Positions 19,049 through 40,725 of a DNA stretch of 64,000 nt are shown here, one piece after another. Both the position numbers and the translations under genes were made by a program. Location of the stretch: assembly GCA_963748615.1 (NCBI GenBank), contig CAVVJQ010000002.1:323240-387239 (forward strand), in the 5' to 3' direction. Within the stretch, counting starts at the first letter, position 1; every line of letters begins with the position of its first letter. Under the pieces are notes generated by a model. It was not told where the DNA came from, made no database searches, and worked only from the letters and a program-made list of their open reading frames with translations. This DNA comes from an uncultured Thermoplasmata archaeon. Its GTDB lineage: Archaea > Thermoplasmatota > Thermoplasmata > UBA10834.

Positions 19049-20047
19049 ATGAGAACAGGAACGAGTAGTGCGAGCACAACTAGGGTCCTCTCTCTCATGC
19101 ACCCGGTCATCGCGGAATGGTTCAAGTCCAGATTCACGGAAGTGACCGAAGCTCAGGCCATGGCGGTTCCGCTCATCCATTCAATGGAAGGCGTCCTGGT
19201 TTCCTCCCCCACAGGCTCGGGGAAGACCCTGACCGCCTTCATGGCGATCCTGAACGAACTGACCCTGATGGCTGAGAAGGAGGAACTGGAGGACCGGGTC
19301 TACGCCGTCTATGTCTCACCATTGAAAGCCCTCGCCAACGATATTAACGCAAATCTGATCCGCCCGCTGGATGAGATATCCGAGCTGTTCCGGAGCAAGG
19401 GTCGTCCGGTCCCACGGATCAGGGTGGGCGTGAGGACAGGAGACACTCTTCCCAACGAGAGGCAGAAACAGCTCCGATTGCCTCCGCATATATTCATCAC
19501 GACTCCCGAATCGTTGTCCTTGGTGCTGTCCACACCAGTGTTTCGCAAGAAGTTCGAGCAAGTGAGCTATGTGATCGTGGACGAAGTCCATGAGATATGT
19601 GATTCAAAGCGTGGCGTCGCCCTCTCGCTGGCCTTGGAGCGACTCAGAAGCATCTGCCCCAAAGATTTCGTGAGGATCGGGCTATCCGCGACGGTGGCAC
19701 CCATTCAGGAGGTCGCGGATTTCCTGGCAGGTGTCGAAGGCGGGAAACCTCGAGCGATCAAGATCATCGAGGTGTACCGTCAACGGTCCTTGGACCTGCA
19801 GGTCCTGTGTCCTGCCAGTGATATGACTGCCCTTTCATTCGAGGTGGTCAACTCCAAGATGTACGACGTCCTCAAGGATATGATCGACTCTCACAGGACC
19901 ACTCTGGTCTTCACCAACACTCGCAGTGGCACGGAGAGTGTGGTATACAAGTTGAAGGAACGAGGCCTCGAGAACTGTCGGTGCACACCATGGAAGCCTG
20001 AGCAGGGAGACCAGGCTCGAGGTCGAGGAGCGTCTGAGGAAGGGTGA
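19049..20047 (+). CDS. lhr: Lhr-type DEAD/DEAH helicase, fragment 1 of 3 (frameshifted at about 19976)
   Basis: Motif I SSPTGSGKT, motif II VDEVHE, motif III GLSATV. After ...KERGLEN the ORF leaves the conserved frame. The expected VGAHHGSLSRETRLEVEERLRKGELKAVVSS is encoded in the +1 frame from 19977. Confidence 0.85.
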   Translation: MRTGTSSASTTRVLSLMHPVIAEWFKSRFTEVTEAQAMAVPLIHSMEGVLVSSPTGSGKTLTAFMAILNELTLMAEKEELEDRVYAVYVSPLKALANDINANLIRPLDEISELFRSKGRPVPRIRVGVRTGDTLPNERQKQLRLPPHIFITTPESLSLVLSTPVFRKKFEQVSYVIVDEVHEICDSKRGVALSLALERLRSICPKDFVRIGLSATVAPIQEVADFLAGVEGGKPRAIKIIEVYRQRSLDLQVLCPASDMTALSFEVVNSKMYDVLKDMIDSHRTTLVFTNTRSGTESVVYKLKERGLENCRCTPWKPEQGDQARGRGASEEG

Positions 20048-20057
20048 ACTCAAGGCG

Positions 20058-22577
20058 GTGGTTTCCTCTACATCACTCGAGCTCGGAATCGATATCGGAT
20101 CCGTCGATCTGGTTGTCCAGATAGGTTCTCCGAAATCCGTGGCGAAGGGCCTACAGAGGGTCGGCAGGGCCGGGCATCAGTATGGTGGCACTTCCAAAGG
20201 GCGTATGCTCGTCTTCGACAACGACGATCTGGTGGAATGTGCGGTCCTCTCGAGAGCGGCTCATAAGAAGATGATCGACAGGGTCTCGATACCAGTGAAC
20301 TCCCTCGACGTCCTCGCGCAAATGATAGTCGGGCTGTCGCTTGATAGACCGTGGACCGTTGACGAGGCATTCTCACTGGTCACGGGATCCTACTGCTACA
20401 GGACCCTCTCGATCGACCAGATGCGCAGCGTGATCAATTATCTCGCCGGCAAGGACGATTTCGAAGGAGTCTATTCCAAGATATGGTATGATGTCAGTAC
20501 CGACACGTTCGGCAAGAAGCGCGGTTCCAGGATGATTTTCTACCTGAACCAGGGCACCATACCCGAGGAAGCGGATTACAAGATATATTCTGAGCGCGGC
20601 GCCCCGATAGGTTCTCTGTCCGAGAAGTTCGTCGAACGCCTCTCGGTTGGGGACATATTCGTCCTCGGAGGGCGGAGTTACGAGTTCGTTCGGGCGAAAG
20701 GCACGAAAGCATTCGTCAAGAGCGCGAGCGGCAGGAAGCCCACGGTCCCATCATGGACTGGAGAGACGCTACCGAGAAGCTTCGACCTGTCCGTTCTCAT
20801 CGGCAAGTTCCGCGGCGAATTCGAGGAGAGGCTCGGCAGAGACTCGGACGATATGACATCTAAGTGGATCATGGACGAATTCATGGTGGATGAGGGCTCC
20901 GCCACTACGATCATCAGCTATTTCCGAGAGCAGAAGATGGTCGCGAAGCTTCCGACCGATGAACGCCTCGTCATTGAAGGGTACATTGATCCCTCCGGGA
21001 ACAGGAATGCTATATTCCATTTCCCCTTCGGCCGCCGTGTGAACGACGCGCTCAGCCGGTCATACGCATGGGTGCTTTCCAAGAAGCTCGGGTGCAACGT
21101 GACCGTATCTGTGACCGATGATTGTTTCATGCTCACAGCGCCCAGGGATTTCAAGTTGGATGGCATAGAACGGCTGCTGAGTTCGCGTGACATAGAGAGC
21201 ATCCTGAGAGAGGCGGTCAAGGACTCCGAGCTGTTCCATCACAGGTTCAGGCATACGGCGACCAGGAGCTTCATGGTTCTGCGCAATTACAAGGGCCGGC
21301 AAATGCCTGTGGCGAGGCAACAGCTGCGCTCTCAGCGATTGTTGGACGCATTGCACGAGCTATCAGACTTCCCCGTCATGTCCGAGACATATTCTGAGAT
21401 TCTCACCGAGGTGATGGACCTCGAGCACGCACGAGAAGTACTGTCGACGATCGAGGGCGGTACTCGTTCGGTCGAGTACATCCAATTCTCTGGGGTACCG
21501 TCCCCCTTGGCGCACAACGTGATACTGATCGGTGTGTCCGATATTGTCCTGATGGAGGATCGGAGCATGCTCCTGAGAGACCTTCACAGGAAGGTCCTGG
21601 CCAGGGTGCTTGGCGACGACGCCCTATCCGAATACACCTTCGACGCGGAGACCGTGGCGGAATACTTCGACGCCAAGTCCCCCTGTATCCGGACCAAGCG
21701 CGATATCCTGGATGCGTTGCGACTCGTAGGCCCCATGAATCTCTTCAAGGAGAAGGGCGAGAACATATACACACGCTCAACAGGGAACTACGACGACCTC
21801 CACACATGGGCTACAGAACTTCTACGAGAAGGAAAGGTCCGTTCCGTATGGATCGGAGAGGATGTCTATGTCCATTCGGATGATTGGTCACTCTATTCGA
21901 GCCTACATCATCGTCCACACAAACCTTCTGCTGTCGAGGAAGCGTTGATGGATGAGATGTTGGGTGAACCTCTCGATATCTCGATACTCTGTGAGCGTCT
22001 CGATCTTGACAAGGATGAAGCCAAGGATATCGTCAAGCGGCTGGAGATCGCCAACATGGTGCACAGGAGCGGCATCCGTGGGGGGCGTTTCCAATACTCG
22101 TCGTCCACCAGCGCTCCGGTCGAAATCGATGATTGCGCCCGAGAGGCGGTGATGAGGCACCTCGCATACCATGCCCCTCTGTCCATCGAGGATATAGCTT
22201 ATGAGGTCGGCACGAGCGAGGAGGCGACCGACAAAGCCCTGAGGTCGCTCCTTGCGAAGGAGCTGGTTGTGTCCGGCAGGTTCGTCATAGGCGAGCAACA
22301 GCAGTTCATGCTCGCCAGGGATTATCTCGCGTTGCTCTCCAAGGAACTGTCCGGTGTTCGACCGGGAGACAGTCCGCTCCTACGTCGAATCCAAGCTACT
22401 CGGCGACGTCCACTCCGCACGCGAATTCTTCGAGCGGTTCGGCGACGTCGGCATGCCATACGACATTGCCGTGAGGGTCCGAGGATTCTCCATAGAGGAA
22501 TTCGGAGGAATGAGGGACCGCGGGGAAGTGGTGCTCGGCAGGTTTGTCCGGGGGAGATTGAGGTATGTCCTGGCTGA
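20058..22577 (+). CDS. lhr: Lhr-type helicase, fragment 2 of 3 (RecA2 end, winged helix and DEAD_assoc-like domains)
   Basis: It begins mid-domain (SSTSLELGIDIGSVDLV; motif VI QRVGRAGH), and its frame is open from 19956. The last ~75 codons (after about 22354) are Arg-rich, non-protein-like read-through that overlaps fragment 3. Confidence 0.85.
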   Translation: MVSSTSLELGIDIGSVDLVVQIGSPKSVAKGLQRVGRAGHQYGGTSKGRMLVFDNDDLVECAVLSRAAHKKMIDRVSIPVNSLDVLAQMIVGLSLDRPWTVDEAFSLVTGSYCYRTLSIDQMRSVINYLAGKDDFEGVYSKIWYDVSTDTFGKKRGSRMIFYLNQGTIPEEADYKIYSERGAPIGSLSEKFVERLSVGDIFVLGGRSYEFVRAKGTKAFVKSASGRKPTVPSWTGETLPRSFDLSVLIGKFRGEFEERLGRDSDDMTSKWIMDEFMVDEGSATTIISYFREQKMVAKLPTDERLVIEGYIDPSGNRNAIFHFPFGRRVNDALSRSYAWVLSKKLGCNVTVSVTDDCFMLTAPRDFKLDGIERLLSSRDIESILREAVKDSELFHHRFRHTATRSFMVLRNYKGRQMPVARQQLRSQRLLDALHELSDFPVMSETYSEILTEVMDLEHAREVLSTIEGGTRSVEYIQFSGVPSPLAHNVILIGVSDIVLMEDRSMLLRDLHRKVLARVLGDDALSEYTFDAETVAEYFDAKSPCIRTKRDILDALRLVGPMNLFKEKGENIYTRSTGNYDDLHTWATELLREGKVRSVWIGEDVYVHSDDWSLYSSLHHRPHKPSAVEEALMDEMLGEPLDISILCERLDLDKDEAKDIVKRLEIANMVHRSGIRGGRFQYSSSTSAPVEIDDCAREAVMRHLAYHAPLSIEDIAYEVGTSEEATDKALRSLLAKELVVSGRFVIGEQQQFMLARDYLALLSKELSGVRPGDSPLLRRIQATRRRPLRTRILRAVRRRRHAIRHCREGPRILHRGIRRNEGPRGSGARQVCPGEIEVCPG

Positions 22578-24432
22578 GGAGGCACAGTACTATCTCGGGG
22601 TTTTTAGAAGGGGTCGTCTATCGAAGTATGAGAGCGCCATCCTGAAGGCAGCTGAACGGTTGGGACCCGGCACCTATCAGGAGATCGCCGAGGCGGCCAA
22701 CATACCTGGGGAGGTGATGCGGGAACACTTCGAATCCCTCGACCGAAAAGGGTACTTCTTCAGGGTGTTCGACGGATCGGATGTATGGACTTCGAGGAAT
22801 GTGTATGCCGTCTGCACGGTCGAGCCCGAGATCGAAGGCGCATTCGAACTCGTGCTTTCGAAGTACGTCCGTGGATATGGTCCCGTGACAGCTTTTCAGG
22901 CAGCGTCCCATCTCGACATCGAAGTCGATGCGGCCCGAGCCCTCCTGAGGAAGATCGGAGCGGAACCGATAACCGTCGGTCTAGAACAGACCGAGATGTT
23001 CGTGATGAAGGATGAGTTGTCGAACATCGGAAAGAGGAGAGGGGCCGACACACGGGTCCGCGTGCTATCACTATATGATCCATTTCTTGGAGACCGATGG
23101 GTCGAGGTCACATCGAAGTACGGTGAAGGTTGGATATTCCCCGTCATTCACAACGGCCAGATTGCAGGAATGATCGAGGAATGGTTGATGGCTGGGGCGA
23201 TCGACATACGTGAGATCCGCCTGGACGACCCGAGTCTGCTCGGACCTTTGCTGGACGAGCTGGACGGCGTGATGGAATTCTACAGATCGATCAACGTGGA
23301 CATCATCCGAGTAAAACGGGCCTTCGGATTGGATGTCGTGGAATTGGATCCTGAAGTGCTGAAGGAATTTCACGGTCATGGCTATAGGGCGTCGAACGGG
23401 ATGTTGGTCAAAGGCTCTCTTGTGACGGATTGTCACGAGAAGTCGGAGTTGTTGGACGTGGTATTCTCGTTGCAGCATTGGAGTGACCTGGATAGATTGG
23501 ACGACATGTCAGTCGCGCTAGCGAAGTACGGCGGTCTCAGAAGCAACTCAGAAGCGCTCACGCGCGTCGATAGGTTCGCACCCCTCGAGATACTTCTGAA
23601 AAATGGGCTGGTTGTCCGCGGTCACCTCGTTCCTGACAGAGTCGGATATTGTACCAAGGACGACGCATCGATCTATCGCGCGGCCAGGTCCCGCGAGCTG
23701 ACCCCTGAGGAGAAGCTGATCCTCAGGATCGTGAAGGACCAGCAGCCGATCCGTCGGGACAGGGCGCTCACAATATCGCCATTGGGTATTGAGGACACGA
23801 CAGAGGCACTCAAATCATTGTATTCCTCATCCATGCTTTACCTCGATACCACCCGAGGATACGTCGCGGCTCCAAAGACGCGACTCTCCCGAAGGTCTGC
23901 TTGGATAAGGATAATCCGGCGCATGTTCCTCAGCTATGGCATATGCTCGGCCGAGGCGCTCTCCATGATGATCGGCTCGGAGATCCCCATGCGAGAACTG
24001 AGGAGTATCCTGAGATTCCTCGAAGGGGAAGGCACTCTGGTGAAGGGCCATCTGGTCCGAGGCTCGACGACCATCTACTGGGCCACTGCGGGTGCACATG
24101 CTCTCCTGGGCGAGGCGGCCCCGAGTGTATCGGTCGTGGTAGCTCCAGAAGACAACATCGTCGGATATCTTCGCGCTGGCTTCAGAGACTCCCTGCCGGA
24201 GACCGGAAGACACGCAGTCTATTCGGGGTCCAAACTGATCGGCTCATTCATCGGGCGTATAGTACAGAACAAGCTCGTGGTGGAAGATCTCCAGAGCGAG
24301 GATGACTGCTCAGAGATCATGGCGTCTTTCGCGAAGAGGCTGGGTGTTGCCCTTTCAGATAGGGAGGAGAGCAGCTTGTCTGAATGGGAGATCATGGAAT
24401 TCTATAGGAAGAGCCACCCTGGGATGGGTTGA
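22354..24432 (+). CDS. lhr: Lhr C-terminal extension, fragment 3 of 3: duplicated winged-helix / AlkZ(YcaQ)-like modules
   Basis: The frame is open from 22291. Two similar halves are present; the first contains VRVLSLYDPFLGDRW...WIFPVIHNGQIAGMIEEW, resembling the YcaQ/AlkZ-type core found in long bacterial Lhr C-terminal domains. Confidence 0.65.
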   Translation: MFDRETVRSYVESKLLGDVHSAREFFERFGDVGMPYDIAVRVRGFSIEEFGGMRDRGEVVLGRFVRGRLRYVLAEEAQYYLGVFRRGRLSKYESAILKAAERLGPGTYQEIAEAANIPGEVMREHFESLDRKGYFFRVFDGSDVWTSRNVYAVCTVEPEIEGAFELVLSKYVRGYGPVTAFQAASHLDIEVDAARALLRKIGAEPITVGLEQTEMFVMKDELSNIGKRRGADTRVRVLSLYDPFLGDRWVEVTSKYGEGWIFPVIHNGQIAGMIEEWLMAGAIDIREIRLDDPSLLGPLLDELDGVMEFYRSINVDIIRVKRAFGLDVVELDPEVLKEFHGHGYRASNGMLVKGSLVTDCHEKSELLDVVFSLQHWSDLDRLDDMSVALAKYGGLRSNSEALTRVDRFAPLEILLKNGLVVRGHLVPDRVGYCTKDDASIYRAARSRELTPEEKLILRIVKDQQPIRRDRALTISPLGIEDTTEALKSLYSSSMLYLDTTRGYVAAPKTRLSRRSAWIRIIRRMFLSYGICSAEALSMMIGSEIPMRELRSILRFLEGEGTLVKGHLVRGSTTIYWATAGAHALLGEAAPSVSVVVAPEDNIVGYLRAGFRDSLPETGRHAVYSGSKLIGSFIGRIVQNKLVVEDLQSEDDCSEIMASFAKRLGVALSDREESSLSEWEIMEFYRKSHPGMG

Positions 24433-24445
24433 TTCCATCCCGCCA

Positions 24446-25327
24446 TCATCCCTGATCTTGTGCGCATCTTGAGAATTCGCAACCGCTGCTCTTCGCCAAG
24501 GTCCTCTCATTGAAGTAGAGGTACTCCTGCGCATAACCAGCGAATCCTCCCCATCTCTGGGTCGCGAACCCTCTGATCGCCTTGTACGATCCTTCGAGAT
24601 TGAACAATCGTGAGATTGCACGTTCTATCCAGATGTCGATTGGAAACGCATCCAGTCTTCCGAAACCGAACAGAGAAACGCAATCAGCGACCTTCTCCCC
24701 GACCCCTGGCAGGGCCATCAGCTCTCTCCGCAGGTCTTGGTACTCGAGCAGCTTCAAACGCCTGATCTCCGCTCGGTCGATACATCTGGAGATGGAGTGG
24801 AGATATTTCGCTCTGTATCCAAGCCCGCACTTCTGTAGTTCTCCCACACTGGCTTCTCTTAGATCGGAAGGTGATGGGAATGAGCGCACCCCATCCACGA
24901 TTTCGTGGCCGAACCGCATGGAGACCTCGTCAATCATCTTCGCGATCCTGGGGATGTTCGCATAGGTTGCCAACACATAGCTCGCCAGGCATTCCCATTC
25001 ATCCATTTTGACGATTCTTAGCCCCCTGAACCGTTCGAGTCCAGAGGATAATACTGGATCGTCGGAGAGCGTCGATTGGATCTCCGAGATGTCATCCGAC
25101 GCCCTCAGAAACTCGGAGATTCGGGCAGGCATCCTGGGTTCTCCAGGATGGGCACCGACGGACAATCGGCCGTTCTCCCACCCTAGAGTGACCAGATGTC
25201 TCCCGAGAGGGCCGATCCAATCGCCCCTGCCCGTTCTGGACCATCTGAACACCTGTCCACATCCAAGGGTCTGGTCCAGATCCAGAGGCTCGATTTCTAG
25301 CGAGAATTTCATGATCGTATCTTCCAA
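24446..25327 (-). CDS. ogg: 8-oxoguanine DNA glycosylase/AP lyase (Ogg1-type, HhH-GPD)
   Basis: OGG_N block LDLDQTLGCGQVFRW. HhH-GPD region LMALPGVGEKVADCVSLFGFGRLDAFPIDIW carries the catalytic Lys and Asp positions. Confidence 0.85.
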   Translation of the reverse strand: MEDTIMKFSLEIEPLDLDQTLGCGQVFRWSRTGRGDWIGPLGRHLVTLGWENGRLSVGAHPGEPRMPARISEFLRASDDISEIQSTLSDDPVLSSGLERFRGLRIVKMDEWECLASYVLATYANIPRIAKMIDEVSMRFGHEIVDGVRSFPSPSDLREASVGELQKCGLGYRAKYLHSISRCIDRAEIRRLKLLEYQDLRRELMALPGVGEKVADCVSLFGFGRLDAFPIDIWIERAISRLFNLEGSYKAIRGFATQRWGGFAGYAQEYLYFNERTLAKSSGCEFSRCAQDQG

Positions 25328-25334
25328 TCACCAA

Positions 25335-25838
25335 TCATCTCTTGTATCCGAACTTGCGGAGGAGCGTCTTCCTATCGTCCGCATCTTTCTCGGTCTCCAC
25401 ACCCTTTGGTCTTTCGCCGTCGATCACTCCGATGACCCCTCTTCCTCTCTCGTTCTCGACCACGACCACGTCCAAAGGGTTCGCGGTAGCGCAAAATATG
25501 GTGCATATCTCCTGCACATCACGAAGCCTGTTCATGATGTTGATCGGATACGAATCCCTCAATATGATGACGAAAGTGTGCCCCGCACCGATGCTCATCG
25601 CATTCTCGGATGCTGATTTCATCAGGTCTTCATCATTTCCGTCCACTCTCACCAGGCACGGACCCGAAGCCTCGCAGAACGCGACCCCGAACTTGGCCTG
25701 TGGGACCGTACTGACTATTGCCTCATAGATGTCCTCTACCGTCTTGATGAAATGACTCTGCCCTATCACGACGTTCGCATTGTCCGGGAGCACGACCTCG
25801 ATTGATTGCATCTTCATGACAGCAAACCCCTTTGGCAA
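25335..25838 (-). CDS. Adenosine-specific kinase-like protein (PAE2307/PF04008-type)
   Basis: Blocks IGQSHFIKTVEDIYEA, KFGVAFCEASGPCLVR, GAGHTFVI, ATANPLDVVV and GRGVIGVIDG match this small conserved archaeal family. Confidence 0.7.
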   Translation of the reverse strand: MPKGFAVMKMQSIEVVLPDNANVVIGQSHFIKTVEDIYEAIVSTVPQAKFGVAFCEASGPCLVRVDGNDEDLMKSASENAMSIGAGHTFVIILRDSYPINIMNRLRDVQEICTIFCATANPLDVVVVENERGRGVIGVIDGERPKGVETEKDADDRKTLLRKFGYKR

Positions 25839-25999
25839 GAAGGTCGATCGTCGGGAAAAATCTTTCTCCGCATGGCTGGCGCACGCACTGGGGTTCCGCA
25901 GCCCTCCTCACCAGTTATCATCAATCGGAATCAAAATGGTTAACTATTTATCCAGGCATACCGTAGACTTGTAAACCATGTCTAAGGAGGCACTGCGAG

Positions 26000-27715
26000 T
26001 TGCCAAGTTCTAGCGGGGACAAACTCTGCCCCATCTGCGATTCTCCACTCCAGCCCGGATCGAAGAAGTGTGGGTTCTGTGGGACCGATTTGTCCATATT
26101 CGATATGGACGTCGAAGAGCCCGTTCAGCCTGCGCCTAGCGCACCGGCTCCAAAGAAATCGATCGATACGATGGTTCGCGAGGTCTTATCGGTTCCTCGC
26201 AATGAACCAGAGGTCCCTGAGACCCCCAAGACTGAGGCCTCAGAGGAATCTGCTGCGACTGCCGCTTCACTGTTCTCGCAATCCATATCCGATACCGGTC
26301 CTGAAACGGAGGAACCGGCAGTTGTCGAGGAAGAGGCCATTCCCGAGACACAAGTGACCGAGCCCGCCCAAGAGGACCAATTCGCATGTCCCGAGTGCGG
26401 CGCAAAAGTGAGCATCACCGCATCCTCATGTTCGAGTTGCGGTGTTATTTTCTCGGATGAAGGCACAGAAGTATTCCAATGTCCTGCATGTAACACGCTC
26501 GTCAATATCGACGCCAAGACATGCCCTGGTTGTGGTGCCATGTTCGTCGAATCCGAGGAGGAAGCGGCTGCGTCAGTGGAACCTCAGCAAGAGCTCGAGC
26601 CGCCGATCGCTGAAGTCCCGGTCATGAGCGAGACCCCAATCGTCGATGATGAGGTCGAGACCGAGGAGGCCGAGGAGGCCGAGGAGTCACCTTCCGATGA
26701 GGTGGAAGCGTCTGAGAAGGCTGCCCCAAAGGAGAAGAAGTCCCGCTCACCGTTCGGCTGGCTGAAGAAGCGCAAGAAGGACGATGTCCCAGACGAGGTG
26801 GAGCCTGAACCCGAACCTCTGGTCGAGTCTGAACCTATCGAGGTCGAGCCAGTGCGACATCTGAAGGAAGAACCGAAGGCAAGAATACCTGAACCGGAGT
26901 TCACCACCAAACCTGCTCCAGCCCCGAAAGTCTCCTCTACGAGTGCTGATCTGAGGGACAAGGGAAAAGAGCTTGCGAGGATGGTGGCGGAAATGAAGCC
27001 GCTCCTATCCCTGGCCATGCAGAATGAGATCGAGATATCTGAGAGTAAGCAGCTCATCGATGATGCAGCCATAGCAGGACGGGAGAGGCAGCTCGAAAAA
27101 GCCCTTGAGCTTGTCAACACTGCACGCGCGATCCTGATGGATGCAATAGATGCGAGGCTGACCGAGACCCTTGACCAGCTGAGGGAAGAAGTCCAAGTGG
27201 CCGATGAGCTCGGCGGTGAAGTCTCTCGACCGAAGACATACATAAGCGAGATGGAGAAGGCCAAATCTCGCGGTGATTTGGAGGCCGCATTCATCTACTC
27301 TGATAAGGTCTCGAACGAGCTCCTTCCGATCACGGGCAGATACAACGAAACGAAGAAGAAGCTCAAATCATTGAAATCCTTGCTTTCGGATTGCGAGATG
27401 CTCATACTTGATACAAGAGAGGCGCGTGCATCTTTTGTCGAAGCCAACAAGGCCTTCGATTCCAGGGCCTTCGATAAGGCCGAGATGCTCATCACGCAGA
27501 CGAACGAGCGTCTCAACGCAGCCATCCCTGAGCGGCTCACTGAGGAGATAAAAGCCGCTCGTCACCTGCTCGTCGATGCGAAGATCCGAAATGTGAACAT
27601 AACCCCCATGCTTACGCTATTGAAGTCGGTGACGAACCTGACGAAATCGAAGGACTATCCGCAGGCGCTCAGAGAGTTGAGGGAATTCAAGGAGATGTCG
27701 AAGAAGACCATGTGA
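26000..27715 (+). CDS. Triple zinc-ribbon protein with an acidic linker and a C-terminal all-helical repeat domain (function unknown)
   Basis: TTG start preceded by AAGGAGG. Ribbons are CPICDSPLQPGSKKCGFCG, CPECGAKVSITASSCSSCG and CPACNTLVNIDAKTCPGCG. A long Glu/Pro/Val-rich linker is followed by about 270 aa of heptad-like helices. Confidence 0.7.
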   Translation: MPSSSGDKLCPICDSPLQPGSKKCGFCGTDLSIFDMDVEEPVQPAPSAPAPKKSIDTMVREVLSVPRNEPEVPETPKTEASEESAATAASLFSQSISDTGPETEEPAVVEEEAIPETQVTEPAQEDQFACPECGAKVSITASSCSSCGVIFSDEGTEVFQCPACNTLVNIDAKTCPGCGAMFVESEEEAAASVEPQQELEPPIAEVPVMSETPIVDDEVETEEAEEAEESPSDEVEASEKAAPKEKKSRSPFGWLKKRKKDDVPDEVEPEPEPLVESEPIEVEPVRHLKEEPKARIPEPEFTTKPAPAPKVSSTSADLRDKGKELARMVAEMKPLLSLAMQNEIEISESKQLIDDAAIAGRERQLEKALELVNTARAILMDAIDARLTETLDQLREEVQVADELGGEVSRPKTYISEMEKAKSRGDLEAAFIYSDKVSNELLPITGRYNETKKKLKSLKSLLSDCEMLILDTREARASFVEANKAFDSRAFDKAEMLITQTNERLNAAIPERLTEEIKAARHLLVDAKIRNVNITPMLTLLKSVTNLTKSKDYPQALRELREFKEMSKKTM

Positions 27716-27730
27716 ACTTGACCGACGATT

Positions 27731-29956
27731 TCAGGTCAGGTTCAGAACCTCCATCTCCCTCTCCATTATCGATATCTCCTGCTCCTTCATGGTCTCAGGG
27801 CTTATTGAGACTGCGAATATGCATTTCGATTCGGACACTTCATCGATTATGCTCCTCAGGAATCTGAGCACCGAATCGAAGTTGGTGTTGCTGATGAGAT
27901 ATTGTATACCATCGAGGACGACCATTCCGTTCCCCTCCTCCAGCATGAATTCCTGAATCTTGTGAATGATCATCTCCAGTGATGGCGGGACCGTATTCTC
28001 CATAGAACTGTCTTTATCCGTAAGCCAAAGTATCTGAGGGTCCTTCACGAAAGCATCTCTGATCCTCTTGGGGTTCATCCTCGTTATTATGAGCCCTCTG
28101 TATTTCTCGGTCATCATTCGTTCCATCAGGACATTGCTGTAGGTCGGTTTCTCCTCCTCTATCAGGTAACAATGGCCAGGCTGGATATTGACCTCCTTCA
28201 TGATCTCCTTTCTAGTCTCTTGCACTGGGGCGAGTGGCTTGAGTATGTCTGAGACGAGGGTCATGTCGATTTCCATCTTCATTATGGTGGAGAACGCGAC
28301 TATCTTGTTCAGCGTGCTCTCTATTTCCCGGACACTCTGAGTGACCTTCTCAGCGATGTACTTCACTACCTCATCGCTGAGTTTCAACTTCTTCTCGTGT
28401 GCCTTCACCCTGACGAGCTTGATCCTGGTGCTCTCATCTGGAGGGAGCAGGTCGACGGTCAATCCCTTCTGGATCCTGGCGTTCAACCTGTCGCTGAAGC
28501 CCGGGATCTCCGCGGGTAGTCTGTCGCTGGCAAGCACGACCTGCTTTCCAGAGTCGATGAGCGAATCGATGATATGTACCATCTCACCCTGAGCCTGTTC
28601 GCTGGCACCAAGGAACTGCATGTCGTCGACAAGCAGGAGTTCGGCATGGTTCAACTCATCCCTCAGATTCTTGATTGCATCTGAGCTCGTACTGTGCTCG
28701 ACCGCGTCGACCAGCTTGTCGGCCGGGGCATACAGGACGGCATATTCGCGGTTCTTGTTCAGTATGTGGTTTCCGATGGCCGCCAGGAGATGCGTCTTTC
28801 CCAGGCCAGTCGCACCGAATATCAGGAGTGGGTTGTATGCCTTGCCCGGATTCTCAGCTACGGCGACAGCGGTCGCTGCCGAGAACTTCGAACCAGGTCC
28901 TATCACGAAGTTGTCGAACCTCATTTCTGGCGGGAATGACTTGGTGAATCGCTGCTCCTTCTCACACTTGCTGCATTGTCCATCTTCCAATCCTCCACCA
29001 CAGATGGGGCACTTCTCGGTTTTCACAGCCTCTTCATCATCGGGCGTTGTCTGGTACTTGAGGATCAAATCGTAGACGTCCGACGCCTTCTCATCCTTCT
29101 TCTTCCGTTCCATCTCCTGCTTTATTGAATCCTCTTCCGCTTTCCTCTTCTGTATCTTGCGGCGGATCTTCTCTTGCAGGAACTCGATGTCAGATTCTAT
29201 CTCCGCAATCCGAGTGCGATCGTTCAGCTTCGTCCTTATCTCTGCAATCTCCGGTTCGAGTCCGAGTATCGGGAAATTGTTCAGGATAGTCTCGAACTGC
29301 CTGAGCTTGTTCGTGTCGCGCTCGAAGCCAGTCAGCTCCTTGGAGATTTCCTGGACACCTTGCTCCCTCGCGGTCTCAAGAGTCTCCACCTTGTACCCCT
29401 TTCTGCGCCACTGCTCTATCTTCTCGGCATACGGATCGATCTCCGCCTCTTCCTTGACCTTCGATTCGTCCCGCGCTTTAGGCGCTGGTTTGGGGGCGAC
29501 TCTTCCTGCGATGTATGCATCGGGGAAACGGCGCTCGAACTCCTCCTTCGGGACACGACTGTGTAGCTCGATGTTGGACCCCTTGTCCTGCGAGTCCTCT
29601 AGTATGAATCTAAGCGACTTCTCTCCGGTGTATATCCTCCGAAGCTCTCTGGGTTTCGATTTCTCGAACTCGTAGATCGCCATGACTGGTGTCCCGAGTT
29701 CAACGACGATGTAACCCGTGGAGTTCATGACGGGCTTCTCGAGCGTGACCTTCAGGTACCCGGTGAAACTGTACTGTTTCAGGTCCGACAGTATGCCCTT
29801 TAACGAATCGGGTCCTCCTTTGGCGGTCCTTACGATTATACCCTCAGGGATTCGGAGATCACTAACCATATCTGGGTCCACTCCGTGAATACTGTCGAAA
29901 CCTATTAACCCTTGTTGCCTGTGATAACCGCTGGTGTGGACCGATGCCACCATCAT
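27731..29956 (-). CDS. Chimeric protein: N-terminal DUF4388-like domain, coiled coil, zinc ribbon, DnaA-type AAA+ module, DUF835-like C-terminal domain
   Basis: Walker A YNPLLIFGATGLGKTHLLAAIGN, Walker B LLLVDDMQFL, then VVLASDRLPAEIPGFSDRLNARIQKGLTVDLLPPDESTRIKL, colinear with bacterial DnaA domain III. The ribbon is KCPICGGGLEDGQCSKCE. The C-terminus shows the DUF835 pattern (GLIITRMNP, ILWLTD, VVLDGIQYL, FLRSIID). The start is set at ATG 29956 because the upstream 56 codons of the six-frame ORF overlap tRNA-Thr. Confidence 0.8.
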   Translation of the reverse strand: MMVASVHTSGYHRQQGLIGFDSIHGVDPDMVSDLRIPEGIIVRTAKGGPDSLKGILSDLKQYSFTGYLKVTLEKPVMNSTGYIVVELGTPVMAIYEFEKSKPRELRRIYTGEKSLRFILEDSQDKGSNIELHSRVPKEEFERRFPDAYIAGRVAPKPAPKARDESKVKEEAEIDPYAEKIEQWRRKGYKVETLETAREQGVQEISKELTGFERDTNKLRQFETILNNFPILGLEPEIAEIRTKLNDRTRIAEIESDIEFLQEKIRRKIQKRKAEEDSIKQEMERKKKDEKASDVYDLILKYQTTPDDEEAVKTEKCPICGGGLEDGQCSKCEKEQRFTKSFPPEMRFDNFVIGPGSKFSAATAVAVAENPGKAYNPLLIFGATGLGKTHLLAAIGNHILNKNREYAVLYAPADKLVDAVEHSTSSDAIKNLRDELNHAELLLVDDMQFLGASEQAQGEMVHIIDSLIDSGKQVVLASDRLPAEIPGFSDRLNARIQKGLTVDLLPPDESTRIKLVRVKAHEKKLKLSDEVVKYIAEKVTQSVREIESTLNKIVAFSTIMKMEIDMTLVSDILKPLAPVQETRKEIMKEVNIQPGHCYLIEEEKPTYSNVLMERMMTEKYRGLIITRMNPKRIRDAFVKDPQILWLTDKDSSMENTVPPSLEMIIHKIQEFMLEEGNGMVVLDGIQYLISNTNFDSVLRFLRSIIDEVSESKCIFAVSISPETMKEQEISIMEREMEVLNLT

Positions 29957-30004
29957 CTTGTCAAAAGGCTTAACTACAGAGACAATCTTCCCAACATTCC
30001 GTCT

Positions 30005-30108
30005 GCCACTGTAGCTCAGCGGTTGCGTCTGCGACCATGCAGGTGCCGCTAGAGAGCGGCAGTTTCGTAAACTGCAGGCCGGGGGTTCGAAACCCTCCAG
30101 TGGCTCCA
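30005..30108 (+). tRNA. tRNA-Thr(CGU) with a 26-29-nt intron in the D-loop; CCA encoded
   Basis: Acceptor GCCACTG/CAGTGGC. D stem GCTC (30014-17) pairs with GAGC (30054-57) only after removing about 30024-30049/52. Anticodon stem GCAGT/ACTGC, loop TTCGTAA. T arm GGGGG-TTCGAAA-CCCTC. Discriminator T, then CCA. Confidence 0.8.
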
Positions 30109-30165
30109 TATCCACCCTCGTCATCCAAGTGACAACTCTAATATGTCAACGAGTCAATCGGCCTT

Positions 30166-31083: not shown

Positions 31084-32349
31084 TCATTCGTCGAGGAGCC
31101 TGTCCACCATCCTCATTGCGCAGAGGTCTCCACACATGGAACAGACATCGGGGCTCTTTGACTTGCGCCGGTCTCTATAGGCCCTTGCCTTCTCTGGGTT
31201 GAAAGAGAGTTCGAACATGGTGTCCCAATCGAAAGCCTTCCTGGCACACGACATCTTCCGGTCTCTATCGCCACCCCTACCTCTTGCGAGATCAGCTGAA
31301 TGAGCGGCTATCTTGCTCGCGATGACGCCTTCTCTCACATCGTCGACGGTCGGCAGCGAAAGATGTTCCGATGGGGTGACATAGCAGAGGAAGTCCGCAC
31401 CGTGATATGCGGCCAACGCTCCACCGATTGCACCAGCGATGTGGTCATAGCCTGCCGCCACATCGCAAACGATCGGCCCAAGGACATAGAACGGCGCTCC
31501 CTTGCAGATGGTTTTCTCCGCCATAACATTCGCCTCTATCTGGTTCAGAGGCACATGTCCAGGCCCTTCGACCATGGCCTGAACGCCGGCTGCACGAGCT
31601 CTCTGGACGAGTTTCCCTAGGACGATCAACTCATGGAGTTGCGGCCCATCAGTGGCATCCGCGGTCGAGCCAGGCCTCAGCCCATCTCCCAGGCTCAGTG
31701 CGAAGCCATGCTCCCTGGCCATCTCCAGGAGGTAGTCGTATTCCTCGTAGAGGGGATTCTCCCGGCTATTCTCGTGCATCCATGCGACCAGGATCGCTCC
31801 TCCTCTGGATACGACGCCGGTGAGCCTCTTGTGGCTTCTCAACGTGGACGCCGTCTCTCTGGTTATGCCGCAATGCACGGTCATGAAATCCACACCATCT
31901 TTCGCATGCTTCTCGATGGTTTTGAAAAGGTCGTCGCTTGTCATCGACATCGGTCCGCCAGATTTCGATGTCCTACAAACTGCTTCGTAGATCGGGACGG
32001 TCCCCACGGGAGCGTCGCACTCGCCGATGACCTTCTTCCTTATCTCGTGCAGGTCTCCTCCCGTGCTGAGATCCATCACCGCGTCAGCACCATATCGCAG
32101 AGCGGTCCTGACCTTCTCCAGCTCCTCGGACAGATCGATCATGTCTTTGGAGGTGCCTATGTTCGCATTCACCTTGACCGTCAACCCTTCACCGATAGCC
32201 CTCGGCCGGAGGTTCTTGTGTCTTGGATTGGATGGGATCACCACTCTCCCACTTTCGAACAATCTGATCAACTTGTCTGGCTCGATTCCTTCCGCCCTGC
32301 AGACCCCCTTCATTTCCGGTGGAGAATCGTTTTTCTTTCTAGTCGCCAT
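31084..32349 (-). CDS. thiC: Phosphomethylpyrimidine synthase ThiC
   Basis: Full-length ThiC-like protein (421 aa) with the C-terminal Fe-S motif CSMCGDLCAMR and conserved MVEGPGHVPL and TIGTS-like blocks. Confidence 0.92.
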   Translation of the reverse strand: MATRKKNDSPPEMKGVCRAEGIEPDKLIRLFESGRVVIPSNPRHKNLRPRAIGEGLTVKVNANIGTSKDMIDLSEELEKVRTALRYGADAVMDLSTGGDLHEIRKKVIGECDAPVGTVPIYEAVCRTSKSGGPMSMTSDDLFKTIEKHAKDGVDFMTVHCGITRETASTLRSHKRLTGVVSRGGAILVAWMHENSRENPLYEEYDYLLEMAREHGFALSLGDGLRPGSTADATDGPQLHELIVLGKLVQRARAAGVQAMVEGPGHVPLNQIEANVMAEKTICKGAPFYVLGPIVCDVAAGYDHIAGAIGGALAAYHGADFLCYVTPSEHLSLPTVDDVREGVIASKIAAHSADLARGRGGDRDRKMSCARKAFDWDTMFELSFNPEKARAYRDRRKSKSPDVCSMCGDLCAMRMVDRLLDE

Positions 32350-32654
32350 CTGATACCGTTGCTACAAAACGACCAATCGGTATAAAGCCTTTGATTGACA
32401 AGGCAATTCTTGGTATCTGAAAAGGGCCTCTGGCCACAGTCGATCGGTGGTTCTGTTCATGGATCAGTGGCTTCTGGTCCTCCTTGGGCCATTCACTCCA
32501 TCATCGGCCATCTTACGCTCTATCGGCGTCTGCCGAATTTTCGAGTGGAAACCGACCGGACGAATCGACGATACGCCGCAATCGAAACGGAGGGAGGTTT
32601 TTGCGGTAGCCAGATAGTATTCTCAAAGATTTTATATACGCAGGCTCCATTTAA

Positions 32655-34655
<2,001 letters not shown>

Positions 34656-34665
34656 GTGATCACTC

Positions 34666-37248
34666 ATGACTGAAGAACCTCAGGAATCCACCAAGTTCGC
34701 CGGCAAGCTGATCATGCGTCCGATAGAAGTCGAGATGAAGAAATCCTACATCGATTACGCCATGAGCGTGATCGTCGGCCGTGCGCTGCCCGACGTCAGC
34801 GATGGTCTGAAGCCCGTTCACAGAAGGATCCTCTATGCCATGAACGAGATGGGGCTTGCCCATAACAAAGCCCAGAAGAAATCCGCCAGAGTGGTCGGAG
34901 AGGTCCTTGGTAAATTCCATCCCCATGGCGATTCTGCGATATACGACACGATCGTACGCATGGCCCAGGACTTCTCGATGAGGTATCCTCTGGTCGACGG
35001 CCAGGGCAACTTCGGCAGCGTCGACGGCGACTCCGCTGCAGCGATGAGATACACCGAGTGCAGACTCTCAGCGATTGCATCCGAGATGCTTCTGGACGTG
35101 GACGAGGACACGGTCGATTTCATCGACAACTTCGACGGTTCCCTCAAAGAGCCCATAGTCCTTCCGGCCAAGCTGCCGAACCTCTTAGTCAACGGCTCAT
35201 CCGGAATCGCCGTGGGCATGGCGACAAACATCCCGCCGCACAACCTGGGCGAAATCGTGGACGCCATCACACTGATGATCGACAGGCAGATCGAGGGGTC
35301 CGATGTCGAGCTCAAGGACCTGATGGATGTCGTCAAAGGTCCGGACTTCCCGACCGGAGGCATAATCTACGGTGCCCAAGGCATCGTGGAGGCATATGCC
35401 CAGGGTAAGGGCAGGATACGGGTCAGGGCACTGAGCACGATCGAGCACGACGAGGATACTGGCCGCGGGCAGATCATAGTCACCGAAATCCCATATATGG
35501 TCAACAAGAGCACCCTGATGGAGGAGATCGCGGAGCTCGTGAAGGACAAGCGCATCGAAGGTATCAGCGACCTCAGAGACGAGTCCGACAAGGAGGGTAT
35601 GCGCATAGTCATCGAGCTCAAACGCGACGCCATCGAGGACGTCGTCATGAATCAGCTGTATGCCCACACACAGCTTCAGACGACCTTCGGAATAAACAAC
35701 CTGGCGCTCGTCAACAACCAGCCTCGTATACTCTCCCTCAAGGAGATGCTGGAGTATCACATAGAACACAGGTTCGATGTGGTCAAGAGGCGCACGGAAT
35801 ACCGCCTGAGACAGGCCGAGAAGCGTGCGCACATACTGGAGGGGCTGTTGATCGCCCTCGACCATCTGGACGAGGTCATCAAGCTCATCAGGAAGGCGAA
35901 GACGAGGGAAGAGGCGAGAACCGGCCTGATGGCCAAGTTCAAGTTGTCAGAGGAACAGACCAAGGCAATACTGGAGATGCAGCTACAACGCCTCACCGGC
36001 ATAGAGATGCAAGCGGTCCGCGAAGAATACGACGCGGTCTCGAAGCAGATCGCGGAGTACCACAGCATTCTCAAGGACGAGAAGAGGATCCTGGGCATGA
36101 TCAAGGACGAGGCGCAGGTCGTCAAGGACAAATACGGCAACGCGCGGCGGACCAGGATCGAATCAAACGCGATCGACATGGATATCGAAGACCTGATCCC
36201 GATGGAGAACGTCCTCGTGATGATCAGCCAGACCGGCTACATCAAGCGCGTCTCGCTCGACACTTATGCCGCGCAGCACAGGGGAGGCGTCGGCCTTCTT
36301 GGCATGGAGACCAAGGAGGAGGATTACATCGTCGACATGTTCGTCACATCCACTCACGATTATGTGATGTACTTCACGAACAAGGGCCGTGTGTACTGGC
36401 TCAAGGCCTACAAGATACCAGTGGGCGGAAGACACGCGAAAGGCAAGCCAGTTGTGAACCTGCTCGAGCACCTCGAAGAGGGCGAGAAGGTCATGAGCAT
36501 GATCCCCGTCAAGCATTTCGACGAGGAACGGAACCTGGTGTTCTCAACCAGGGGTGGCCTGATCAAGAAGACGAGACTCATCGCATATTCCCATGTCCGC
36601 CAGAACGGCATAATCGCAATAAGGTTGGAGGACGGGGACGAGGTCGTCGACACCGCCCTCACAGACGGATCGAAGGAGATAGTACTGGCGACCAGGAAGG
36701 GCTCTGCCGCCAGGTTCAACGAGTCCGATGTCAGGTCGACCGGTCGGGCGACATATGGCGTGCGTGGCATCCGTTTGAGGAAAGGAGACGAAGTCGTCAG
36801 CATGGCGGTCGTGGTGCCGAAGGACCAGTTGTTGACAGTGACGGAGAACGGTTACGGGAAACGCTCCTTGGTCGAGGACTACAGGAAGATCAGACGTGGC
36901 GGCAAAGGCGTCATCACGATCAAGAGCGGCGGCAGGAACGGCGATGTCGTATCGGTCCAACCGGTCAGTGACGAGCATGAGATAATGGTGACGAGCGTGC
37001 GCGGCATGGTCATAAGGATGCCTGTGAGCGGCATAAGCCTGCTAGGCAGGGCGACCATGGGCGTCAGGCTCATGCGCCTCAAGGATCGCGACAAGGTCGT
37101 GGCGGTCGCGCAGATGGTCGGACTCGCGGAGGAGGAACGGATGATAGAGTCGGGACTGACCATCACCCATTGCGCAGAGGAGAACGGTGACCTGGTCGAT
37201 GACGAGGAGAAGGACGATGCGGAAAACGATGATGAGAACGACGAGTAG
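34666..37248 (+). CDS. gyrA: DNA gyrase subunit A
   Basis: [21 protein letters not shown] and the active-site AAMRYTE block. C-terminal beta-pinwheel repeats and an acidic tail. Confidence 0.95.
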
Positions 37249-37374
37249 CCAGGTGGGTTTTTGACCATCTGGCCAGCGTCTCACTACTGATAACGACCCG
37301 CAAACCTTTATTAGTAGACAATCTATTGAAATCCGCAGAGGAGTCCGACTCACCCGAACAAGGAGGGCTGCACT

Positions 37375-38088
37375 TTGTTTAGAGACTCGATACAAGGTCT
37401 GGAAAAGGTTTTCAAGAATGACATCGAGAGGCCCAAGGTCATACTCGTCACCGGTCCCCCGGGATCGATGAAGACGAGCTTCTGCTATTCTCTGATGTCG
37501 CACTACCTGAGGGATAAGAACGAGTTCGGCCTCTATGCCACTCTCGAAGAGACGGTTGACAGCCACCTGAAGAACATGGAGAGCATGGGCGTGAAACTCT
37601 CCGCGAAGATGCAGATATCAGACATGACCGATCTCAGGGAGATCGACCAGATCGATGAGGTCATCGGCGATTCTGCGCAGACAGATTACGTACTGTTTAT
37701 AGAGAAGATGATACAGCGTTTCAGGAGGACTCACGGAGATAAGTTCTCGATATTCGTTCTCGACTCGCTCGGCGCGCTCTACTCCCTGATGGAGAACGCG
37801 GAGGACATGAGGAAGAAGATGTTCTATTTCTTCAAGATGCTCAGGGACAACAACCTCACATCATTCATAATCATGGAACGATCGTTGACAGGCGAGTCGC
37901 AGCTTCTCGGAAACGAAGGCTTTCTCGCAGACGGCATCGTGATGCTGGGTCTTGACCGTCAGAGGGGCAAGCTGGTGAGATACCTCCAGGTCGAGAAGAT
38001 GAGGGCCGCGGAGCACAGTATGGAGAAGCACGCCATAGAAGTCAACAAATCCGGAATGCAGGTGCTGGGCCCGTTGCTGAGCACTTGA
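37375..38088 (+). CDS. KaiC-like single-domain ATPase (ArlH/FlaH-sized)
   Basis: 237 aa. Walker A VTGPPGSMKTSF, Walker B IFVLDSLGAL, C-terminal LQVEKMRAAEH block. TTG start 7 nt after AAGGAGGG. Confidence 0.75.
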   Translation: MFRDSIQGLEKVFKNDIERPKVILVTGPPGSMKTSFCYSLMSHYLRDKNEFGLYATLEETVDSHLKNMESMGVKLSAKMQISDMTDLREIDQIDEVIGDSAQTDYVLFIEKMIQRFRRTHGDKFSIFVLDSLGALYSLMENAEDMRKKMFYFFKMLRDNNLTSFIIMERSLTGESQLLGNEGFLADGIVMLGLDRQRGKLVRYLQVEKMRAAEHSMEKHAIEVNKSGMQVLGPLLST

Positions 38089-38203
38089 CACCTCGACATG
38101 GCCGATGCTGCCCGTGTCGCGCAAACCCCATGAGTGTGCGCCGTCCATCCCCCTGGGATCAGGCGCTGATCACGAATGACCTTGTCAACAGGGAAAGGGA
38201 TCG

Positions 38204-39214
38204 ATGATGACAGAAGACCAGAGCATTTCGCAGATAATCGAGGACGCAGTCAAGAGCCTGAGGACCCAGGAGGCCGAGGTCCGCAAGAAGGATCAGGACG
38301 TTCAGGGCCAGAGGTCCGAGCTTCAGAAGATGAAGGCGGAGCTGGAGTCACGTGAACAGATGCTCCGCGAGAAGGAGGACTCACTGAGGGAAACGGAATC
38401 GTCCCTTGAGAGAAAGGACGAGGAGGTCACGGCTCGCGAGGCATCCGTCCAGACCAAGGCGGCCCAGGTGGATGCGAAGAATGCCGAGGCTCTGAAGCTC
38501 GAGGAACGGTCAAAGGCGGCCCTGGCGAATGCGGAGGCGAGGGAGCGGGAAGCCGAGACCTCGTTATCGGAATCATCTCGCGCCCAGGCCGAGACGACCC
38601 AAAAACGCAAAGTGCTCCTCGACCGGGAAGATCAGATGAAGAAGTCCGAGGAGGAACTCCAGAGGCTTATGGAACAGGTGGCATCGAGGCGTGATGCGCT
38701 CATATCTCGTGAGCGTTCCCTGGCAGCTGAAGAGGAATCCATCCGGAATGATCGCGAAAGACTCTCAGAAGACGCTCAGAGGCTCCTCAACAGACAGACC
38801 GAAGTGATCGAGGGCGTCACCGTGGAGCAGGCCGAAGGCATTGAGACAAGCAAGTCCGATCTGGGCGACGACGAGATAGAATGCCCCCGGTGCAAGACGG
38901 TCATAAGCAAGGACGCGATAATGTGCTATTCCTGTGGTCATCAACTGAGGGTGGTCGAACCCGAAGAGATCTCAGAGGATGCATCTGGCCAAGAGGACGA
39001 TGTCGAACCATCCGAGGAAGATGAGGTGTCCTGTCCGAAGTGCAGGACGATGGTCAGCAAGGGTGCGATAATGTGCTACGCCTGCGGTTCCGACCTGAGA
39101 GGTTCGCAGCAGGAAGCGGATGAGTCAGGAAGTCGCGAAGAGGAGAAAGTCGCAGAGGAACCCAAGAAGCCACAGGTCTTTGTCAAGAAGATCGTCAAGA
39201 AAAAGGTCGCTTAG
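38204..39214 (+). CDS. Coiled-coil protein with two C-terminal zinc ribbons (function unknown)
   Basis: About 220 aa of Glu/Lys/Arg-rich heptads, then CPRCKTVISKDAIMCYSCG and CPKCRTMVSKGAIMCYACG, and a basic tail. Confidence 0.7.
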   Translation: MMTEDQSISQIIEDAVKSLRTQEAEVRKKDQDVQGQRSELQKMKAELESREQMLREKEDSLRETESSLERKDEEVTAREASVQTKAAQVDAKNAEALKLEERSKAALANAEAREREAETSLSESSRAQAETTQKRKVLLDREDQMKKSEEELQRLMEQVASRRDALISRERSLAAEEESIRNDRERLSEDAQRLLNRQTEVIEGVTVEQAEGIETSKSDLGDDEIECPRCKTVISKDAIMCYSCGHQLRVVEPEEISEDASGQEDDVEPSEEDEVSCPKCRTMVSKGAIMCYACGSDLRGSQQEADESGSREEEKVAEEPKKPQVFVKKIVKKKVA

Positions 39215-39324
39215 CCAGCATCTGTTCGAACCCTTCGTCGCCATGAAAATATGGCAAATAGCTTTTTATATAGCCGAACTGCTTACTTTGATTCGCAATA
39301 CCCAGCATCTGGGTGGGTGAACTT

Positions 39325-40725
39325 ATGGAACACAGAGCTGGCCCTCTTCTGGCCAACAGATCTCTGAGCGCATTGATTGTAGCCACATTCGTGCTGTCGG
39401 CGTTCGCCGGGTTATTCGTAATGTCGAATCCTGCGCCTACCGCTGCACAGACACCGATCGGTGACCTGAATGTAACTGCCGGCACATACACAATCGAGAA
39501 TGTGAACCAACCTGTAGATGGTGATGTTCTCGTCAGTGGTGGGGAGCTGATAATACGGAACGCTGCTTTGCTGGTGATCAGCAACGAAGGTGTTCAGCGG
39601 ACGGTGACGGTCGAGACCGATGGAACCATGATTCTTGAACATGGCACTCTCACCACCTATCTGGATCAGATCGATCCATGGCCGTTCCTGGTTGTGGATA
39701 TCGATGGAGGGACTCTCATAGCCTCGGAGCGGTCGCTATTGAGTTTCCCAGGCTCGATCACCGTACAGAACGGTGGCGAGCTCATACTGTATGACAGTAC
39801 TATCGAGCCGCTACCTGCAGGGGATATATCCTTGTACCTCTCAGGATCCCCCACGGTAGCCATTGACGCCGCGGATGATGGACCTGAGATCTCAGTCATT
39901 GACGGCTCAATAATGATGTTCGATTCCGAGATAACGAGCCTTCCGGAATATCCTTCCCTGGGTCTCGTCGCAAGCAACCTCACTCTGAGTGGAGAATCTA
40001 CTCTGCTGGCGGTCAACAGCTACATCAGTGTTGACTTCGGACCTGACGTTAGTGCATCTGATTGGTACACTCATAATATGCTGGTCTTGTCGAATTCTTC
40101 AAAAGCCCATCTTTACGGAACATATTTCGATGAGTATTCTGGTAGCTACTCGGCGAGGTCATCTGCCGTCCTTGCTGATGGCGAAAGCTACATTGCATTG
40201 CCTACTTCCTCTGGATCAGAAGATACTACGGGACAACCTTACACTGATCTCCTGGCCAGCAATGAAGGTTCAACATACCACGTCGCTCCAGGGGATGTAA
40301 TGGCCATTGATACTTTCAGTGCAGGTCCTCCAGCGACAGTTGATGAAGCAACGCTGTATGTGAGATATCTCGTGGATGCCGGATATAACGGCGCGAGATC
40401 ATTTACATGGTGCCTTGAAGGAGGAACTGCTGCATCAACTGGAATCACTCCATTGCCGTCTGAGACTTCCTTCGTAGAGAAGAGCTTCGATTTGCGTGAT
40501 GCGGGAGTAACCACCACTAGCGATCTTGCTGATTTGGATATCAACTTCATACACGATGGATCAACAGGCGATGTTCAAGTGGACAGCATGTCCATTGTAA
40601 TCTCTCTGGGGCCAGAAGCCTACATATATAGATGGATCAACCTGACAGTCGGCGATGAATACGGCGTGCCGATTCCCGACTGTGACATTTCATCGACATT
40701 TACGGGGTCTTTGACAGTTCTCTGA
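39325..40725 (+). CDS. Giant surface adhesin, N-terminal part (signal peptide and beta-helix-like module); probably the 5' portion of one gene continuing at 40718
   Basis: ATG 39325 is preceded by GGTGGGTGA. Signal/TM LSALIVATFVLSAFAGLFVM. The ORF ends inside an Ig-like domain that starts YIYRWINLTVGDEYGVPIPD. Confidence 0.75.
   Translation: MEHRAGPLLANRSLSALIVATFVLSAFAGLFVMSNPAPTAAQTPIGDLNVTAGTYTIENVNQPVDGDVLVSGGELIIRNAALLVISNEGVQRTVTVETDGTMILEHGTLTTYLDQIDPWPFLVVDIDGGTLIASERSLLSFPGSITVQNGGELILYDSTIEPLPAGDISLYLSGSPTVAIDAADDGPEISVIDGSIMMFDSEITSLPEYPSLGLVASNLTLSGESTLLAVNSYISVDFGPDVSASDWYTHNMLVLSNSSKAHLYGTYFDEYSGSYSARSSAVLADGESYIALPTSSGSEDTTGQPYTDLLASNEGSTYHVAPGDVMAIDTFSAGPPATVDEATLYVRYLVDAGYNGARSFTWCLEGGTAASTGITPLPSETSFVEKSFDLRDAGVTTTSDLADLDINFIHDGSTGDVQVDSMSIVISLGPEAYIYRWINLTVGDEYGVPIPDCDISSTFTGSLTVL

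Follow-up and report, generated by a model that had tools for sequence, protein, structure and literature searches.

Systematic errors tied to short sequence motifs have been described in assemblies built from nanopore reads. In R10.4.1-only assemblies, base modifications give rise to strand-specific, motif-centered C/T and G/A mis-calls, and because read accuracy at the modified sites is only 54-65%, only some of the sites flip in the consensus (PMC11610603, "Hammerhead"). Such modification-dependent errors are specific to lineages and persist after polishing with Medaka (PMC10687267, "Modpolish"), and nanopore-only collections of metagenome-assembled genomes (MAGs) produced with Flye and Medaka are deposited in ENA (PMC12313526). 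Here, we analyze a stretch of 64,000 nucleotides from an uncultured Thermoplasmata archaeon of the UBA10834 lineage (GCA_963748615.1, contig CAVVJQ010000002.1, positions 323,240 to 387,239; hereafter, the window), in which two genes, one for a large helicase and one for a large surface protein, are broken by three frameshifts. We consider it probable that the three frameshifts are a motif-linked insertion artifact of a long-read-only assembly, the likely trigger being a modified base in (G)AACGT(C). The broken genes and the octamer GAACTGTC found at their three junctions are as follows.

19049..24432, plus strand: Lhr-type large helicase gene, split into three open reading frames (ORFs), as defined by ORF calls, Pfam domains and intact orthologs of 1793 amino acids.
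19972..19979, plus strand: junction 1, octamer GAACTGTC with extra base T19976; relatives have GAAC-GTC or GAAC-GTG.
22344..22351, plus strand: junction 2, octamer GAACTGTC with extra base T22348; relatives have GAAC-GCC.
39313..44110, plus strand: gene of a large surface protein ("adhesin"; CARDB and double zinc-ribbon domains), divided between two ORFs, as defined by ORFs, Pfam domains and orthologs.
40713..40720, minus strand: junction 3, in the surface-protein gene, octamer GAACTGTC (GACAGTTC on the plus strand) with extra base A40716; relative L009 has GAC-GTTC.

The first of the split genes is an Lhr large helicase. Its three ORFs (19049-20047 in frame 2, 20058-22577 in frame 0 and 22354-24432 in frame 1) together carry the DEAD, Helicase_C, WH_Lhr and DEAD_assoc core, followed by an AlkZ-like C-terminal extension. 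A homology search with the stitched protein retrieved dozens of uninterrupted orthologs of ~1,793 amino acids from Thermoplasmatota, of which the best are 93-95% identical to it, and the orthologs listed are single ORFs of 1777-1846 amino acids. When T19976 and T22348 are removed, the gene becomes one ORF of 5382 nucleotides that has its sole stop at the end and is equal in length to the genes of the relatives; the repaired protein aligns with the intact 1793-amino-acid orthologs at 92-95% identity and with zero gaps. At junctions 1 and 2, members of the 90% cluster of the best ortholog have ...ERGLENVGAHHGSLS and ...LLSKERPVFDRETV, respectively. The window also encodes an intact, shorter Lhr-core paralog of 914 amino acids (59396-62137, minus strand; DEAD, Helicase_C, WH_Lhr and DEAD_assoc).

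The surface-protein gene is divided into ORFs at 39313-40725 (frame 1) and 40796-44110 (frame 2), and both frames are open only at 40715-40722, within the octamer. Removal of A40716 yields a protein of 1,598 amino acids, the same length as the ortholog P0132, and identity to P0131 is complete over the 70 amino acids that surround the repaired junction. Intact orthologs of this protein include P0132 (1598 amino acids), P0133 (1600 amino acids) and P0134 (1598 amino acids). The three frame breaks are thus present in the sequence of the window, while the orthologs are single intact genes.

To see what distinguishes the junctions at the nucleotide level, we compared the window over 9-54 kb with DNA of five related Thermoplasmata lineages that are 87-93% identical to it: GCA_018818785.1 with its ENA, JGI and Logan twins; an ENA SPAdes contig labeled Thermoplasmata_UBA10834; contig_59604 (L013), which is recorded in ENA and NCBI; JACZKW01; and GCA_004525325.1. 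Every break consists of one extra base and, read on the strand of the motif, this base is in all three cases a T that separates the C from the G of GAACG(T/C)C. At junction 1, the window has gagaac[T]gtcggt where relatives have gagaac-gtcggc or gagaac-gtgggc; at junction 2, aaggaac[T]gtccgg corresponds to aaggaac-gcccgg; and at junction 3, tttgac[A]gttctc corresponds to tttgac-gttctc, with the 12 flanking bases on each side identical to those of L009. The preliminary description of this DNA had placed the octamer at the three junctions, where it does lie, and had treated it as a site that existed beforehand, which does not hold: judging from these alignments, GAACTGTC at the breaks is the product of the insertion and not its target, the prior sequence being GAACGTC. 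The same description had held the coincidence of motif and frame breaks to be nonrandom. With the same edit at all three breaks, this is borne out, since the chance that randomly placed second and third insertions would share the heptamer, the position within it and the inserted base is ~(12/256000)^2, or ~2e−9 (arithmetic from motif counts).

The orientation of the edit is equally informative. Both genes are on the plus strand, as is the motif at two of the junctions; at the third, the motif is on the minus strand. Its codon phase is different at each junction (for instance, gag-aac-Tgt at junction 1 and gaa-cTg-tcc at junction 2). At junction 3 the motif is antisense to the gene, and the mRNA would carry GACAGUUC, not GAACUGUC. 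Because the edit follows the strand of the motif, and neither the gene strand nor the codon phase, no ribosome- or RNA-level process fits. Two earlier suggestions gain from this: that the differing codon phases speak against ribosomal slippage, to which the antisense motif and the uninterrupted orthologs can now be added, and that the cause acts at the level of DNA or of reads, as an identical, motif-oriented +T at three sites would have it.

An exact scan of the window returned exactly five copies of GAACTGTC, at 10271 (minus strand), 19972 (plus), 22344 (plus), 28005 (plus) and 40713 (minus), and so reproduced the list of the preliminary description (the three junctions plus 10271 and 28005 only). 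This copy number is by itself unremarkable and is not an enrichment: dinucleotide shuffles predict 2.55 copies, and at least five copies occur in 13 of 100 shuffles. Three of the five copies sit on the only three frame breaks of the window, and the tally resolves into two native copies, which equals the chance expectation, and three that were made by insertion. The native copies were earlier said to lie in ORFs that read normally, and alignments with relatives agree that both are native.

10271..10278, minus strand: native copy of GAACTGTC in the pilin gene, at a codon that varies (the window has aca, both L001 and L012 have gac, and L013 has agc).
28005..28012, plus strand: native copy of GAACTGTC in the DnaA-ATPase/DUF835 gene (itself on the minus strand), gapless against GAACTATC of the relatives.

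We considered a fourth insertion event at 10271, where a +1/−1 gap pair against L001 and L012 suggested a suppressor. It was rejected, as the alignment with L013 is gapless here and the codon simply varies (T, D or S); the gap pair against L001 is a BLAST artifact.

The heptamer itself is found at further positions in the window without any change.

12843..12849, plus strand: unaltered GAACGTC, one of nine.
17054, 36207 and 63038, plus strand, and 25770, 34286, 38297, 49790 and 62129, minus strand (positions of the first base): the other eight unaltered GAACGTC.

The window therefore holds 12 GAACGTC-type sites, three of which are hit, and the nine unaltered ones show that the heptamer can escape the insertion. 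They include sites in MCM, gyrA and gyrB, the one at 62129 within the Lhr-core paralog, and GAGAACGTC at 36207, which is intact. The location of all three hits within the GAACGTC subset is compatible with a somewhat shorter motif of AACGTC (P = 0.07) or GAACGT (P = 0.11) but not with AACGT (P = 0.006) or ACGTC (P = 0.002). A literature search for GAACGTC returned primer sequences only.

How might these insertions have arisen? We hypothesize that the assembly comes from a long-read-only metagenome, probably of native DNA sequenced by nanopore and assembled by a Flye-type program, and that a lineage-specific methyltransferase modifies the CpG cytosine, or a base next to it, in (G)AACGT(C). The CpG cytosine at some copies of (G)AACGT(C) would then be read ambiguously as C or T and emitted as "CT," which would turn the heptamer into GAACTGTC; only part of the sites would pass the consensus threshold, which would leave three of 12 hit. 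Several observations point in this direction. Records of the window's proteins come from NCBI and ENA only, from one contig of 455,485 bp, and the Logan short-read assemblies lack these proteins. The 399,374-bp contig_59604 of a sibling lineage, whose name is in the style of Flye, has the same record profile, while Illumina-based relatives are present in Logan. This sibling contig has five intact GAACGTC, and its copies of GAACTGTC are native; if it was obtained on the same platform, its intact sites point to an organism-specific trigger such as a modification and not a generic k-mer bias. A cytosine read as "CT," together with a homopolymer-type indel at 16630, would fit the framework of modification-linked nanopore errors. 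Most likely, the three frameshifts are absent from the DNA of the organism, where the Lhr and surface-protein genes would be intact.

The remaining indels of the window bear on this interpretation. Over 9-54 kb, they are intergenic, are multiples of three or form +1/−1 pairs a few bases apart in divergent sequence, with one exception: at 16630 (16627-16645), the window has a G-run of GGG and all three aligned relatives have GGGG. This deletion, the only lineage-specific coding indel besides the three breaks, removes the stop of the fumarase alpha subunit gene and lengthens the product from 290 to 294 amino acids (+4), which overlaps the start of the beta subunit gene. The change from G4 to G3 is of the homopolymer type that is typical of long-read errors, and a further error of the assembly may be involved. 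ORFs from 1-9 kb and from 54-64 kb were scanned with Pfam, which revealed complete domains and no split genes. In the sibling contig_59604, we observed a lineage-specific insertion of one nucleotide at position 3142, gtcta[A]tcgg, near the N-terminus of MCM and not at GAACGTC; MCM of this contig is called with 707 amino acids, compared with 729-734 in relatives, and that record may contain an assembly error.

A number of points weigh against a modification-linked artifact. The platform is deduced from the record profile and the homopolymer-type indel, not from reads. The events at the junctions are insertions, and published modification-linked nanopore errors are overwhelmingly substitutions (PMC11610603, PMC10687267); in the window, C-to-T changes are not overrepresented at the motif, as judged by GAATGTC at sites that are GAACGTC in relatives. 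Nor did we see a methyltransferase gene in the window. Only three of the 12 heptamer sites are affected, and the extended motif that the preliminary description had envisaged as a means to separate broken from intact sites did not emerge: a comparison of ±15 nucleotides around the three hit and nine unhit GAACGTC sites disclosed no extended or bipartite motif. Finally, both heptamer sites of Lhr are hit (P ~0.045, given three hits among 12), and this double hit is the pattern expected if a real first frameshift had relaxed selection on the second.

The last point leads to the alternative of real, recent mutations, in which a lineage-specific hotspot for +T at GAAC^GTC would have pseudogenized Lhr (twice) and the surface protein, for example through faulty repair at a methyl-cytosine that was nicked, cleaved or deaminated by a motif-specific enzyme. 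We regard this alternative as unlikely, although it would account for the identical, motif-oriented edit at three sites, and a second hit is expected in a gene that is already dead. The hits are also confined to genes that are plausibly dispensable, with the sites in MCM, gyrA and gyrB intact, and the paralog at 59396-62137 could buffer the loss of Lhr. If the gene were a decaying pseudogene, however, a raised ratio of nonsynonymous to synonymous substitution rates (dN/dS) and extra stops or indels would be expected, and Lhr shows neither. The repaired gene has a dN/dS of 0.10 against its closest relative (0.05-0.15 per segment, for three segments), in comparison with 0.14 between two intact relatives; amino acid changes unique to the lineage number 27 in the window versus 19 and 66 in relatives, and the repaired gene has no further stops. 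By these sequence measures, Lhr appears to be free of relaxed selection or decay, and its lesions, if real, are extremely recent.

The occurrence of the motif and of the insertion in relatives also disagrees with a hotspot. The same insertion is absent from the five relative lineages and from 23 metagenome loci, and scans for the junction pattern in GTDB representatives and JGI metagenomes yielded only relatives that lack the T. GAACGTC is not depleted (12 in 64 kb, and 4-5 per 25 kb in relatives), which implies that there is no long-standing hotspot. It is moreover improbable that three events of one exotic type would have been fixed when the gene bodies contain no event of the common homopolymer type, and we know of no mutational process that would place a nontemplated T in a nonrepetitive heptamer. 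That the extra T's are truly in the DNA, as products of a very recent, sequence-specific +1 insertion at GAAC^GTC that struck about a quarter of the motif copies and inactivated Lhr and the surface protein, is in our estimate improbable.

It is similarly doubtful that the insertions are an artifact of consensus or polishing that has nothing to do with modification, such as a generic k-mer bias of the basecaller or the merging of C/T alleles of different strains into "CT." Differences between lineages of the C/T (or G/A) kind are common at this CpG of other GAACGTC sites (17054, 25770 and 34286), and the C (or G) at junctions 1 and 3 is at a synonymous wobble position, where merging of strain single-nucleotide polymorphisms (SNPs) would fit. 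At junction 2, however, the C begins an Arg codon and a C/T polymorphism is unlikely there; furthermore, merged strains would strike SNPs in any context and not one heptamer three times, and we rejected strain merging because it fails at junction 2 and leaves the shared heptamer unexplained. A k-mer bias, on the other hand, should also strike the nine intact sites and the five intact GAACGTC of the sibling contig.

Programmed recoding, by +1 ribosomal frameshifting, transcriptional slippage or RNA editing that would restore full proteins, is hardly credible: all three are indeed +1 shifts, and conservation of the frames that follow them is complete, but the codon phases of junctions 1 and 2 differ, the motif at junction 3 is antisense, there is no homopolymer or slippery site, and every ortholog examined, down to ~47% identity, is an uninterrupted ORF.

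Three further candidates were discarded. Adapter read-through, suggested by CTGTC as the start of a Nextera read-through, is incompatible with flanks that stay collinear with relatives. Phase variation at simple sequence repeats is ruled out, as the inserted T has C and G as its flanks and lies in neither a homopolymer nor a tandem repeat. Templating by a quasi-palindrome was entertained for junction 2, where the T improves the pairing of ACTGT with a downstream ACAGT, and was dropped in view of the lack of a counterpart at junctions 1 and 3. Within junction 2 (22346-22380), the extra T makes ACTGTCCGG (22346-22354) a better inverted repeat with CCGGGAGACAGT (22365-22376), which is probably a coincidence.

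The DnaA/DUF835 gene (27731-30124, minus strand) encodes a protein of 797 amino acids in which a DnaA ATPase domain of bacterial type (PF00308) is combined with DUF835 at the C-terminus, an architecture that is unusual for an archaeon; the protein is conserved in all relatives (742-795 amino acids). Several tandem genes for KaiC/RecA-like ATPases (PF06745, DUF7090, DUF7125), at 7702-9770 and 37375-38088 (both plus strand), adjoin a pilin gene, and a large type IV pilus/T2SS-like cluster with two T2SSE ATPases and two T2SSF extends over ~44-50 kb.

If the insertions are an artifact linked to modification, as we propose, two genes that a public MAG lists as fragments or pseudogenes are in reality intact. 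Long-read-only MAGs can then hold motif-specific insertion errors beyond the substitution and homopolymer types, which homology-aware polishing would fix, and the recurrent error would point to (G)AACGT(C) as a probable DNA modification motif in an uncultured, UBA10834-like lineage of Thermoplasmata. If, instead, the insertions are real, they would represent an unknown, sequence-specific insertion mutagenesis and a new kind of motif-targeted indel mutagenesis in archaea. Most likely, the frameshifts are not a real feature of the biology of this organism, and what they offer is a warning on the quality of the record and a clue to a methylation motif.

Among known systems, programmed +1 frameshifting of the prfB/RF2 type resembles the situation in the window in that read-through requires a +1 shift, beyond which the frame is conserved; unlike at prfB/RF2-type sites, there is no fixed codon phase, one of the three junctions has no motif on the sense strand, and the orthologs are plain ORFs. 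Frameshifted pseudogenes and contingency loci likewise consist of adjacent fragments of one ancestral gene, and a surface protein is a typical target of phase variation; the junctions described here differ from them by having no simple sequence repeat, no decay and an identical nonrepeat context in unrelated genes. Homopolymer indel errors of long-read MAGs share with the window the splitting of conserved genes by single-base indels, and the window has one candidate for such an error at 16630, but the three main events are outside homopolymers and place a T between C and G. Modification-mediated nanopore errors are almost all C-to-T or G-to-A changes, and the window differs from them by a frame-breaking insertion of one nucleotide and by a platform and a modification that are deduced. 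In other respects, the correspondence is close: in both, there is one short, lineage-specific motif, whose strand is followed irrespective of the orientation of genes; the errors are centered on a cytosine with C/T ambiguity, affect a fraction of the sites and create spurious differences from close relatives; and they survive polishing of the Medaka type.

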